A DNA stretch of 64,000 nucleotides from Escherichia coli (lineage in GTDB: Bacteria; Pseudomonadota; Gammaproteobacteria; Enterobacterales; Enterobacteriaceae): the NCBI RefSeq assembly GCF_013315695.1, contig NZ_CP054353.1. One strand, 5' to 3'. Each line of letters begins with the position of its first letter. Within the stretch, counting starts at the first letter, position 1. Of this stretch, positions 15,598 to 19,965 are shown one piece after another. The notes beneath the pieces were generated by a model, which worked only from the letters and a program-made list of their open reading frames with translations, was not told the DNA's origin and did not search any database. The translations under genes were made by a program, and so were the position numbers.

Positions 15598-16143
15598 GGG
15601 TAATCCTTTGTAAGACAGAGAGTAAAATAAGTTACACACGTCGTATTTATGGCCGTTCATAACGGCACAGGTTTAATATCACAGGAGTGTCTTTATCTGA
15701 CCGTAATGTTGCAATTGATCTATTTTCAAAATGTCTTTCGGGAAATGATTGTTTAAAGTATGTTGTTAAATTCTCATGTTAATTCAGTGTGTTATGTCAA
15801 CTAATGTCATGAATGTTAAATTTTTAAAATTAACTTGATTTGGTGTATTGAGGTATTTGTGATCTACTTCTAATTTGCATTTTAGTGATATGGGTTTAGC
15901 CATGAGTAAATGCATTTCATAAAATTTAAGTCGAATTTCACTGCAATTCATCTCTGCTTAATGTAAAAATAATGTTGAAAATAACAAATGGTTAATGATT
16001 CATGCGAATTATGACCTTAGTTAGCTCTTTTGATTTTTCGTAAAAAAGAGAGGTACATGAAGGTGCTACCAGTATGAGTAACGTTAATCAAAGGTTTTAT
16101 TACGTCTGGCAATAACGCAGGCCATTTTCGCGACTGGGTGGAT

Positions 16144-16646: not shown

Positions 16647-17591
16647 TTAAAGTATTTGATTGGCATCGGTTAACTGATCAATAACCAGTGCCAGATTGGT
16701 AAACATTTTGAAAAAGCGATACTGGCTCGGAATATCTCTTTCAAAGACGAAACATTCAATGTCATTGTTTGAAAAATAAAGGACTAGTGTTGCTGATTCG
16801 TCAGGAAAAATATGGAAATATATCTGGTTACCAGAAGGAGGATAGTCCAGAAGAAGGGTATCTTTGCCCGTCACATACCTGTTGTGGTCGTGGATGCTGC
16901 GCTCACACTTCATCAGAGGTGTCATGATACTCATGTATTCATCTGATGTTAATATATTAAAATCACCATCCATTTTAAAGAAACGATAAAGTAACAGTAC
17001 ATCCTCTTGCGTAACCGGTTCGTTTGTTTTTAGAGGGAAATAAGTGGGAACCAGAAGATGAGGTTCTAATCTATTTTGTTGAGCGCTATAACTAAATTTG
17101 AACATAAATTCCGGATCGCTCATCAATTGAGCGACATAATTATGCCTGGCTTCAAAAATTTTAACTTTTATCAGGTTAAATAAGTCTGTTTCGTCATCCT
17201 GTATTAAAAGACATTGGCCATAGCAGCCAGGCTTTTTTTCATTATAAGCAGAAACGGTTATTCTGTCAGGAGTGTCAACGTTATATCCAAAAGCCAGATA
17301 GTGACCGTCCTCATCGAGATTTGTTTCCAGGTTATTTAAATTTATCACATGAAGTGTTTGCAATGCTGATTCAATGAGCTGTTGACTCTCTGAGGTAAAT
17401 GTTTCGCGCTGCGTTGTATAAAGTGTATCGATTCCAACGACTATCCGATATGGGTCAAGGATGGCGGCAATCATCTTTATTACCTGCACAGCCACGGGTG
17501 ATGTCATTGATTCGTTATCTGTTTTTAGAGGATCATTAGATGGCCAACCTGAGAAGCGATTGACAGCCGAACCGATATTATCAGGACTCAT
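16647..17591 (-). CDS. hypothetical protein, no recognisable domain (AT-rich)
   Basis: 314 aa ORF, acidic and Phe/Tyr-rich; GAGG RBS about 9 nt upstream of the ATG. Confidence 0.6.
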   Translation of the reverse strand: MSPDNIGSAVNRFSGWPSNDPLKTDNESMTSPVAVQVIKMIAAILDPYRIVVGIDTLYTTQRETFTSESQQLIESALQTLHVINLNNLETNLDEDGHYLAFGYNVDTPDRITVSAYNEKKPGCYGQCLLIQDDETDLFNLIKVKIFEARHNYVAQLMSDPEFMFKFSYSAQQNRLEPHLLVPTYFPLKTNEPVTQEDVLLLYRFFKMDGDFNILTSDEYMSIMTPLMKCERSIHDHNRYVTGKDTLLLDYPPSGNQIYFHIFPDESATLVLYFSNNDIECFVFERDIPSQYRFFKMFTNLALVIDQLTDANQIL

Positions 17592-17949
17592 AGCAGCAAC
17601 CTCATTGTAATCAAGCGAGGCGCTGAGCGTACTCGGCTATAGAAAAACTAACTTGCAAAAATCGCTCATTTTTCATTTATCAGGCGAAAGTGGTCTCTGT
17701 TCACTCAGAAACAATCACTCCCGCTAAGTCATACCTGTTTCATCGATACACTTAAGTGATTATTACTAATGAAACAATAACATAACGGGCTTACGGCCGG
17801 TGCTCATAAAGGCAACAATCAATTAACTTTGATAAAAATATGTTATGTAAAATAGCAACAAATTGGCTAATCTAATCAATTGGTATTATAAAAAGTGGAT
17901 AAGGCGGTTCTGTTAAATAAAACACTGGTTTTTTATCTATACCTTTTCA

Positions 17950-18396
17950 TTGTAATAATTGTGTTGCATAAATATTTCACAATAAATTAACAATAAAATC
18001 ACCAATGATCTATGGTTTATACATAATTAACATATTTGGTTGGTTTTGATATAAATCAATTTTTAATTCTTGAAAAAAATCTGCAAAACACGATAAATTG
18101 TCGTAGATCAAATTGGTGAGATCGTGACAATTTCGCTATAAATTGATCACTGTCGAAAAATGCAAATTTGCTCAATAAAAACCTGTTTATTGTAAGGATT
18201 TTGCGGCGTAATATAATTACGGGATCAATTTGGTTTATTCATTAACATATTTGTAACTTTTTTATCATTGTCTTTTCCTCTTTTGATGAAATGGCAACGA
18301 TAGAGGCGAGCAAATAATTTTGTATTGGGGCATGCGTGTGACCCTTTCTAACGGGGTTCACTCTCGGAGTCTTCATGCGATGAGCAAGGAGTCATG
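17950..18396 (+). promoter_or_regulatory. cydAB promoter/regulatory region
   Basis: Long AT-rich leader upstream of cydA with a repeated ggtttat-N-attaacatatttg motif (18014-18047 and 18229-18258) and TTGAT-like half sites; exact sites not resolved. Confidence 0.45.
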
Positions 18397-19965
18397 ATGT
18401 TAGATATAGTCGAACTGTCGCGCTTACAGTTTGCCTTGACCGCGATGTACCACTTCCTTTTTGTGCCACTGACGCTCGGTATGGCGTTCCTGCTGGCCAT
18501 TATGGAAACGGTCTACGTCCTTTCCGGCAAACAGATTTATAAAGATATGACCAAGTTCTGGGGCAAGTTGTTTGGTATCAACTTCGCTCTGGGTGTGGCT
18601 ACCGGTCTGACCATGGAGTTCCAGTTCGGGACTAACTGGTCTTACTATTCCCACTATGTAGGGGATATCTTCGGTGCGCCGCTGGCAATCGAAGGTCTAA
18701 TGGCCTTCTTCCTCGAATCCACCTTTGTAGGTCTGTTCTTCTTCGGTTGGGATCGTCTGGGTAAAGTTCAGCATATGTGTGTCACCTGGCTGGTGGCGCT
18801 CGGTTCAAACCTGTCCGCACTGTGGATTCTGGTTGCGAACGGCTGGATGCAAAACCCAATCGCGTCCGATTTCAACTTTGAAACTATGCGTATGGAGATG
18901 GTGAGCTTCTCCGAGCTGGTGCTTAACCCGGTTGCTCAGGTGAAATTCGTTCACACTGTAGCGTCTGGTTATGTGACTGGCGCGATGTTCATCCTCGGTA
19001 TCAGCGCATGGTATATGCTGAAAGGTCGTGACTTCGCCTTCGCTAAACGCTCCTTTGCTATCGCTGCCAGCTTCGGTATGGCTGCCGTTCTGTCTGTTAT
19101 TGTTCTGGGTGATGAATCTGGTTACGAAATGGGCGACGTGCAGAAAACCAAACTGGCTGCTATTGAAGCCGAGTGGGAAACGCAACCTGCGCCTGCTGCC
19201 TTTACTCTGTTCGGCATTCCTGATCAGGAAGAGGAGACGAACAAATTTGCGATCCAGATCCCTTACGCGCTGGGCATCATTGCAACGCGTTCCGTGGATA
19301 CTCCAGTTATCGGCCTGAAAGAACTGATGGTGCAGCATGAAGAACGCATTCGTAACGGGATGAAGGCGTACTCTCTGCTCGAGCAACTGCGTTCTGGTTC
19401 TACCGACCAGGCGGTTCGTGACCAGTTCAATAGCATGAAGAAAGACCTCGGTTACGGTCTGCTGCTGAAACGCTATACGCCAAACGTGGCTGATGCGACT
19501 GAAGCGCAGATTCAACAGGCAACCAAAGACTCCATTCCGCGTGTAGCGCCGCTGTACTTCGCGTTCCGTATTATGGTGGCGTGTGGCTTCCTGCTGCTGG
19601 CAATCATCGCGCTCTCTTTCTGGAGTGTCATCCGCAACCGCATTGGCGAGAAAAAATGGCTGCTGCGCGCCGCGCTGTACGGTATTCCGCTGCCGTGGAT
19701 TGCTGTAGAAGCGGGCTGGTTCGTGGCTGAATATGGCCGCCAACCGTGGGCTATCGGTGAAGTGCTGCCGACAGCTGTGGCGAACTCGTCACTGACCGCA
19801 GGCGATCTCATCTTCTCAATGGTGCTGATTTGCGGCCTGTATACCCTGTTCCTGGTGGCAGAATTGTTCTTAATGTTCAAGTTTGCACGCCTCGGCCCAA
19901 GCAGCCTGAAAACCGGTCGCTATCACTTTGAGCAGTCTTCCACGACTACTCAGCCGGCACGCTAA
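18397..19965 (+). CDS. cydA: cytochrome bd-I ubiquinol oxidase subunit I
   Basis: 522 aa from [28 protein letters not shown]. Confidence 0.97.

Follow-up and report, generated by a model that had tools for sequence, protein, structure and literature searches.

A two-copy motif upstream of cydAB in a non-K-12 Escherichia coli allele is likely two pieces of known ArcA-binding architecture

The motif that occurs twice upstream of cydA in the window (the whole 64,000-nucleotide stretch of DNA that was analyzed) likely represents, judging from the sequence, two pieces of known ArcA-binding architecture that have come to look alike over 23 to 26 nt by happenstance in this allele lineage. The ArcA half-site of each copy sits at mapped K-12 sites, which argues for ordinary known promoter architecture rather than a novel repeat. 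What is conserved in each copy is one ArcA direct-repeat (DR) element, which is therefore probably the functional part. Read on the bottom strand, the functional unit of each copy is probably the ArcA DR ATGTTAAT. The similarity of the two copies outside this core is best read as incidental, although a shuffle P of about 0.02 to 0.07 weighs somewhat against that reading.

The preliminary description had placed the motif in an AT-rich region upstream of cydAB, and this was borne out. The intergenic region 5' of cydA is 805 bp long and 67% A+T, and it ends at the cydA start at position 18397.

18397..19965, plus strand: the gene cydA (cytochrome bd-I subunit I)

The cydA DNA is 99.0% identical to that of K-12 cydA, with no amino acid differences. 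On the 3' side, cydA is followed by cydB, cydX, ybgE, and then the tol genes. The 5' neighbor is a minus-strand hypothetical gene (16647-17591) on the margin of a methylaspartate-mutase island; K-12 has mngB at this position. The segment from 17592 to 18420 is 100% identical to E. coli strain MS 21-1. For the cydAB control region, the window carries an E. coli allele other than that of K-12. The window-like allele lineage comprises approximately 1,100 of 5,425 complete genomes at an identity of at least 95%.

We also noted that the cydAB promoter region is hyperdivergent among E. coli lineages, with transcription factor sites and their spacing kept. Between 17997 and 18316 (about -400 to -81 from cydA), identity to K-12 is 42 to 97% per 40-bp block, and the last 80 nt before the cydA ATG are 95 to 100% identical to K-12. 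The 5,425 genomes include 934 at an identity of at least 99%, 188 at 95 to 99%, 1,122 at 90 to 95%, and 3,181 at 80 to 90%. The alleles go with three different upstream neighbors: mngB, the methylaspartate-mutase island, and a TPR protein. Because the intervening DNA diverges by 20 to 58% among E. coli lineages and the transcription factor sites and spacing do not change, this promoter is a good natural experiment in which functional positions can be separated from filler.

The repeat itself was delimited as follows.

18013..18038, plus strand: repeat copy 1, TGGTTTATACATAATTAACATATTTG; ends 8 bp upstream of the Fnr-1 orthologue
18231..18253, plus strand: repeat copy 2, TGGTTTATTCATTAACATATTTG; carries a 3-nt deletion relative to copy 1

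The copies match at 22 of 23 aligned bases with one 3-nt indel and lie 215 to 218 bp apart. Both contain TGGTTTAT, then CAT, and then the exact 13-mer ATTAACATATTTG, which occupies 18026-18038 in copy 1 and 18241-18253 in copy 2. The motif had originally been assigned to 18014-18047 and 18229-18258; the repeat is real, but these limits are 1 to 2 nt off and take in extra flank. The stretch tggtttata, thought to begin both copies, is exact in copy 1, but copy 2 reads tggtttatt, so that only TGGTTTAT is shared. Likewise, the spacer that was thought to be common differs by 3 nt, and what the copies do have in common after it is the exact 13-mer.

When the 805-bp intergenic region was aligned locally with itself, copy 1 with copy 2 was the top-scoring pair. 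The same generic gapped score was reached by 36 of 500 dinucleotide-preserving shuffles (7%), and an exact direct repeat of at least 13 nt was present in 41 of 2,000 (2%). A two-block statistic (8 exact bases, a spacer of at most 6, and 11 exact bases), which was tailored post hoc and on which no conclusion was based, was matched by 1 of 2,000 shuffles. Since 2 to 7% of the dinucleotide shuffles equal it on the unbiased measures, the repeat is only modestly nonrandom; we regard it as real and somewhat, not strongly, beyond chance. Allowing one mismatch, the 13-mer was found in the 64-kb window only at the two copies, with 0.06 occurrences expected. With two occurrences in 64 kb, it does not behave as a dispersed repeat or a mobile element remnant of the REP or MITE type. 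No inverted-repeat structure associated with the repeat was found, and inspection of the copies by eye gave no convincing consensus match for IHF, the NarL heptamer, PdhR, or Cra.

To score ArcA elements, an 18-bp ArcA box PWM was rebuilt from 115 of the 128 boxes in Table S3 of Park 2013. The rebuilt PWM gave scores of 20.3, 13.0, and 15.3 for the three K-12 cydA boxes, compared with published scores of 19.8, 12.7, and 15.3. An ArcA box was taken to be 18 bp with two DR elements 11 bp apart, center to center, and a score of at least 9 bits. Such boxes are present at both copies, with a weak second DR at copy 1.

17976..18004, minus strand: three phased DR elements with T0 at 17979, 17990, and 18001; orthologue of cydA2 DR3-DR5
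18016..18033, minus strand: ArcA-box-like match ATGTTAATTATGTATAAA, 18 bp, 16.2 bits; overlaps copy 1
18027..18033, minus strand: consensus ArcA DR element ATGTTAA inside copy 1; 10.5 bits, the maximum of the 7-mer PWM
18242..18259, minus strand: canonical two-DR ArcA box AAGTTACAAATATGTTAA, 20.6 bits; its DR2 is the copy 2 core; cydA3 orthologue

Seven of the ten boxes of at least 14 bits in the 64-kb window fall inside the 805-bp intergenic region, and the distal boxes of the cydA2 orthologue, both on the minus strand, score 20.6 bits (17976-17993) and 14.5 bits (17987-18004). On the bottom strand, the shared 13-mer reads CAAAT, an A/T-rich spacer, followed by ATGTTAAT, a DR of maximal score (10.5 bits). 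Each copy thus holds one strong DR on the strand opposite to the motif (ATGTTAAT; top strand, ATTAACAT). The sides on which the partner DRs lie differ. At copy 2, the partner, AAGTTAC, is 11 bp away and outside the repeated motif (18253-18259). At copy 1, the equivalent side reads ACCAACC (-4.2 bits), and the sole neighboring DR, on the other side at a distance of 9 bp, is the weaker ATGTATA, which lies within the TGGTTTATACAT part of the motif and at the position of cydA2 DR1. We consider the second DR of copy 1 in the 11-bp register to be weak, since a box in that register scores 6.2 bits in the K-12 orthologue and has a median of 8.3 bits across 34 species. The suggestion that the motif resembles ArcA-type direct repeats therefore needs dividing. 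A consensus DR is present in each copy, on or adjoining a K-12 ArcA site, but the motif as such is no ArcA direct repeat, in which elements of about 10 bp recur every 11 bp rather than 215 to 218 bp apart.

Other ArcA-box matches were observed away from the copies. Two lie at 17812-17829 (minus strand, 14.0 bits) and 17829-17846 (plus strand, 17.3 bits), at the same distance from cydA as K-12 cydA1, in DNA that is not alignable with K-12. The latter holds, at 17836-17845, a third and inverted copy of the 10-mer AAATATGTTA, which fits the idea that the ArcA-preferred arrangement of an A/T spacer plus ATGTTA generates look-alikes. A strong match, ATGTAAAAATAATGTTGA (18.8 bits), is found at 15961-15978, in the intergenic DNA upstream of the minus-strand glmS-glmL-methylaspartate mutase operon; this box hints at ArcA control of the glutamate fermentation island.

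Three ArcA ChIP-seq regions, each with a predicted site, have been reported upstream of K-12 cydA (Park 2013, PMC3798270; PLoS Genet 9:e1003839). The sites, which were defined by ChIP-seq plus PWM, are cydA1 (770081-770111, plus strand), cydA2 (770260-770311, minus strand, with five DR elements), and cydA3 (U00096.2 770526-770556, minus strand, GCGTAAAGAAAGGTTGCAAACATGTTAATAA) (Park 2013, PMC3798270). The ArcA ChIP peaks are said there to agree with the DNase I footprints of Lynch and Lin 1996 and Cotter 1997, and cydA2 is described as consistent with the footprint of Lynch and Lin 1996 (Park 2013, PMC3798270). We located the K-12 sites in NC_000913.3 (offset from U00096.2, +777), where they lie at -600 to -570 (cydA1), -421 to -370 (cydA2), and -155 to -125 (cydA3) relative to the cydA ATG. 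A comparison with mapped K-12 sites together with a motif scan had been proposed as a check of the ArcA assignment, and the outcome was favorable: the copies align to the edge of cydA2 and to cydA3, with boxes of 16.2 and 20.6 bits. Both are orthologous to K-12 regions that ArcA occupies in vivo, as determined by ChIP-seq.

By alignment, copy 2 is the orthologue of K-12 cydA3. They agree in strand and in having the DR2/DR3 pair at an 11-bp spacing, and the box lies at -155 to -138 from the cydA ATG in the window, compared with -152 to -135 for K-12 cydA3. The window box AAGTTACAAATATGTTAA is nearer to the consensus than the K-12 cydA3 box aggttgcaaacatgttaa (20.6 versus 15.3 bits). Immediately 5' of the core, the top strand reads GGTTTATTC in the window and GAGTT-TTT in K-12, and the likeness of copy 2 to copy 1 arises from this difference. 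The ChIP peak of K-12 cydA3 is weak (3.1- to 3.7-fold) and centered 48 bp from the predicted site (Park 2013, PMC3798270).

Copy 1, also by alignment, straddles the promoter-proximal edge of the cydA2 orthologue. Its first half aligns with cydA2 DR1 (K-12, ATGTTTCAAT; window, ATGTATAAAC), and the three distal DRs of cydA2 are kept in the window at 17976-18004 with the same 20-bp and 11-bp internal spacings. The half that contains the 13-mer corresponds to K-12 770313-770326, within the 21 bp that separate cydA2 from Fnr-1. The K-12 orthologue of the copy 1 DR core occupies 770313-770320, whereas cydA2 as drawn ends at 770311, about 1 to 2 bp short of it. The copy 1 DR ATGTTAAT, which is 9 bp rather than 11 bp from DR1, has no place in Park's cydA2 model.

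The FNR sites and promoters of the region were placed relative to the copies.

18046..18059, no strand assigned: Fnr-1 orthologue TTGATATAAATCAA, a perfect FNR consensus with 0 mismatches
18070..18099, plus strand: P1-like sigma-70 promoter, TTGAAA-18-TAAATT, from a consensus scan; start predicted at about 18106
18098..18111, no strand assigned: Fnr-2 orthologue TTGTCGTAGATCAA, 2 mismatches; 52 bp downstream of Fnr-1
18190..18217, plus strand: proximal promoter-like element, TTGTAA-16-TATAAT, matching 10 of 12 consensus positions; start at about 18224

Fnr-1 and Fnr-2 reportedly lie at -53.5 and -1.5 of P1 (Cotter 1997 and Govantes 2000). From this Fnr-1/Fnr-2 geometry, we infer that the promoter at 18070..18099 is P1. 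These positions fit the 52-bp Fnr spacing and would put the copy 1 DR at about -76 from P1. Both K-12 FNR sites are kept in the window, 52 bp apart as in K-12, where the sites at 770333 (TTGATATTTATCAA) and 770385 (TTGTTCTCGATCAA) lie under one FNR ChIP peak (Myers 2013, PMC3688515; PLoS Genet 9:e1003565). A search for TTGAT-N4-ATCAA with at most one mismatch gave no match inside either copy, and the FNR sites are separate from the repeat. The link to FNR control that had been drawn for the motif thus holds for the region, through the sites at 18046-18059 and 18098-18111, and not for the copies, neither of which is an FNR site.

In K-12, sigma-70 ChIP peaks are found at 770039 and 770509 (Myers 2013, PMC3688515). 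By conversion of the coordinate offset, the peak at 770509 maps to the proximal promoter, an element that is near-invariant across 34 species. Relative to the proximal start, copy 2 would lie at about +8 to +30 and its ArcA box at +19 to +36. Copy 1 would thus be upstream of P1, and copy 2 would be inside the P1 transcript, just downstream of the proximal promoter; the location in the cydA leader that had been given for both would therefore apply to copy 2 but not to copy 1. Five cydAB promoters have been described, with P1 to P4 under the control of O2, ArcA, and FNR.

Additional sequence blocks were noted near these elements. The block GGGATCAATTTG (18221-18232), which is kept in most of the 34 species, is at the predicted proximal start, overlaps the first bases of copy 2, and resembles the right half of Fnr-2 (GATCAAATTGG). 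An H-NS-type motif, CGATAAATT, at 18091-18099 overlaps the predicted P1 -10 element and lies outside both copies, and a similar H-NS-like motif, GCTATAAATTG, is found at about 18134. We take CGATAAATT to match the high-affinity H-NS motif tCGATAAATT. The presence of the two motifs is in keeping with reports that H-NS represses cydAB. ArcA activates cydAB by an anti-H-NS action, and FNR represses it (Park 2013, PMC3798270); H-NS binding has also been flagged in the mngB-cydA spacer (Shimada 2014).

The conservation of the copies was assessed by scanning species-representative genomes with a degenerate CydA N-terminus pattern, which yielded 120 Enterobacterales loci, and by aligning 34 Enterobacteriaceae sequences as a phylogenetic footprint. 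In the 34 sequences, conservation was confined to the TTAAC(A) cores and the partners phased with them, and it covered only 7 to 8 nt of each copy. The TTAAC core was present at copy 1 in 32 of 34 sequences and at copy 2 in all 34; TTAAC(A) corresponds on the bottom strand to wTGTTAA, which is the ArcA DR. The flanks TGGTTTAT and ATTTG matched the window in only 20 to 40% of the sequences at copy 1. Conserved columns in the copy 1 region read ACA..TTAACA..TyAC....AAACA..TTAACA followed by Fnr-1, and those in the copy 2 region comprise the promoter (TTTATTGTAAGG...GCGGCGTAATATA), then GGGATCAATTTG, and then ATTAAC-N6-GTAAC. The copy 2 box was found in every one of the 34 sequences (median, 17.8 bits; minimum, 11.7 bits), as was its partner DR, GTTAC or GTTGC, 11 bp away. 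Spacing was likewise constrained: 19 bp from the copy 1 core to Fnr-1 (33/34), 52 bp from Fnr-1 to Fnr-2 (31/34 species), and 93 bp from Fnr-2 to the proximal -35 element (29/34), with a core-to-core distance of 213 to 217 bp across genera. The DR cores and their phasing are thus under purifying selection in related species.

In the wider set, TTAAC-N6-GyAAC was found at -150 to -170 in 38 of 109 Enterobacterales loci; of the shuffles, 0.2% had it at any position in the region. Most of the non-Enterobacteriaceae loci scanned (Yersiniaceae, Erwiniaceae, Morganellaceae, Pasteurellaceae, and Orbaceae) lacked the strict patterns TTAAC-N12-19-FNR and TTAAC-N6-GyAAC, and we therefore limit the claim of conservation to the Enterobacteriaceae. 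The E. coli alleles compared retain TTAACATA (copy 1) and ATTAACA..TTTG.AAC (copy 2) but differ in the TGGTTTAT and ATTTG flanks. The corresponding K-12 sequences are TTATTGAAACATGATTAACATAATTTG (copy 1) and GAGTTTTTATTAACATGTTTG (copy 2). The similarity beyond the core is found neither in K-12 nor in other genera and is specific to the E. coli allele lineage of the window. The whole 23- to 26-nt motif was considered as a recognition unit and rejected: conservation covers only 7 to 8 nt, the two copies have their partner DRs on opposite sides, and the flanks vary among E. coli alleles and among genera.

These features suggest how the two copies might act. Copy 2 would supply DR2 of the predicted 18-bp ArcA box at 18242-18259, about 19 to 36 nt downstream of the proximal start. 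Copy 1 would supply the promoter-proximal DR of a multi-DR ArcA site at 17976-18033, the cydA2 orthologue, at about -76 from P1. On the mechanism described in the literature, phosphorylated ArcA would bind the DR arrays at low oxygen and raise cydAB transcription, mainly by countering H-NS silencing, and under full anaerobiosis FNR at Fnr-1 and Fnr-2 would repress cydAB. The analysis itself shows the sequence, its orthology to K-12 sites, the PWM scores, and conserved cores and spacing; occupancy by ArcA-P in this strain, the promoter assignments, and the sign of regulation at the downstream site are presumed.

A more tentative proposal concerns the copy 1 DR (18027-18033; K-12 770313-770320). 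It is possible, though we think it rather less probable than not, that this DR is an unrecognized sixth repeat of ArcA site II; in this allele lineage, it could be paired with the near-identical downstream site via ArcA-P oligomers. If so, an ArcA subunit would sit about two helical turns from FNR at -53.5, and this could be the setting point of a three-way ArcA/FNR/H-NS switch at cydAB.

Several other explanations of the repeat were weighed. One is that the whole 23- to 26-nt motif is a functional paired operator that loops out about 215 bp containing P1, the FNR sites, and the proximal promoter, with ArcA-P oligomers or another factor reading the full motif. ArcA-P does form higher oligomers (PMC3998891), the tailored two-block statistic is rare (1/2,000 shuffles), no other place in the 64 kb has the 13-mer, and the core-to-core distance is held to 213 to 217 bp across genera. 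That distance, however, is explained by the conserved elements lying in between, and neither K-12 nor other E. coli alleles nor other genera have kept the flanks that make the copies match. The 3-nt indel shifts the register between the blocks, 215 bp corresponds to about 20.5 helical turns and would place the cores on opposite faces of the helix, and the unbiased shuffle statistics are borderline; we consider such an operator improbable. We give slightly less credence still to the notion that the copies serve H-NS as nucleation or binding sequences in curved, AT-rich DNA and that ArcA is not their reader. The region is 67% A+T and has an H-NS-type motif (CGATAAATT, 18091-18099), and H-NS binds the mngB-cydA spacer (Shimada 2014) and represses cydAB (Park 2013). 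Nevertheless, that motif is outside both copies, and what is conserved is not generic AT-richness but discrete TGTTAA-type cores in an 11-bp phase with ArcA PWM scores of 17 to 20 bits. Moreover, binding by H-NS and binding by ArcA are compatible, the published model being that ArcA displaces H-NS.

It is very improbable that the copies are a chance resemblance in AT-rich DNA and that both are functionless. The shuffles lend this some weight, since 7% reach the gapped score and 2% hold an exact 13-mer repeat. However, the cores are kept with fixed spacing in 34 Enterobacteriaceae and coincide with K-12 ArcA sites, which contradicts chance for the cores and leaves it standing only for the noncore similarity. 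Least probable of all, in our estimation, is an RNA-level motif in the long cydA leader, such as a repeated sRNA- or protein-binding site. Copy 2 would be inside transcripts from both P1 and the proximal promoter, and transcription of both copies from far upstream is conceivable, given the sigma-70 peak at K-12 770039 and the five published promoters. Against this, conservation takes the form of DNA half-sites in helical phase at fixed distances from promoter hexamers and FNR sites, no Rfam family matched, and copy 1 would lie upstream of the main promoter. We thus favor the reading of the copies as parts of two known ArcA sites.

The cydA leader shows features of its own. The cydA leader appears, on modeling, to be a conserved, structured RNA. 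In the 5' untranslated region (18327-18396), the tail GGAGUCUUCAUGCGAUGAGCAAGGAGUCAUG (also given as GTCGGAGTCTTCMTGCGAKGAGCAAGGAGTCAWGATG) hardly varies among 46 Enterobacterales. RNAalifold predicts pairing of CUUC with the Shine-Dalgarno GGAG; as these pairs are invariant, they provide no covariation evidence. An upstream hairpin, GUGUGACCC/GGGGUUCAC at 18336-18361, has compensatory changes at five pairs, each changed on both sides in 12 to 15 of the 46 sequences, for a total of 68 both-side-changed cells versus 27 ± 7 in shuffles. Folding of the single leader sequence gave no signal (z = 0.5), and a search of Rfam with 17592-18500 at a permissive E value returned only eukaryotic miRNA and snoRNA noise (E values of 0.5 to 9, far below gathering scores). 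A palindrome, CCTCT...AGAGG, occupies 18277-18306 in the leader. K-12 and other genera have unrelated palindromes at this place (for example, TTCTTC..GAAGAA and TTTCCT..AGGAAA), which suggests that a hairpin is kept here by structure and not by sequence. The leader also holds two GGA motifs. CsrA activates cydABX translation 3.5-fold in Salmonella (Potts et al. 2019).

Control of cydAB by ArcA and FNR is textbook knowledge, and genome-wide maps of the sites date from 2013; the repeat is known biology and changes little. What the published K-12 site model is missing is the conserved consensus half-site adjoining Fnr-1. A generic ArcA box is 18 bp with two DRs 11 bp apart, center to center, and ArcA sites have two to five DRs. 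The repeat unit first described here (23 to 26 nt, recurring 218 bp apart on the top strand) differs from that ArcA repeat unit. Like the generic ArcA box, both copies hold a DR of maximal score, and copy 2 contributes to a full box.
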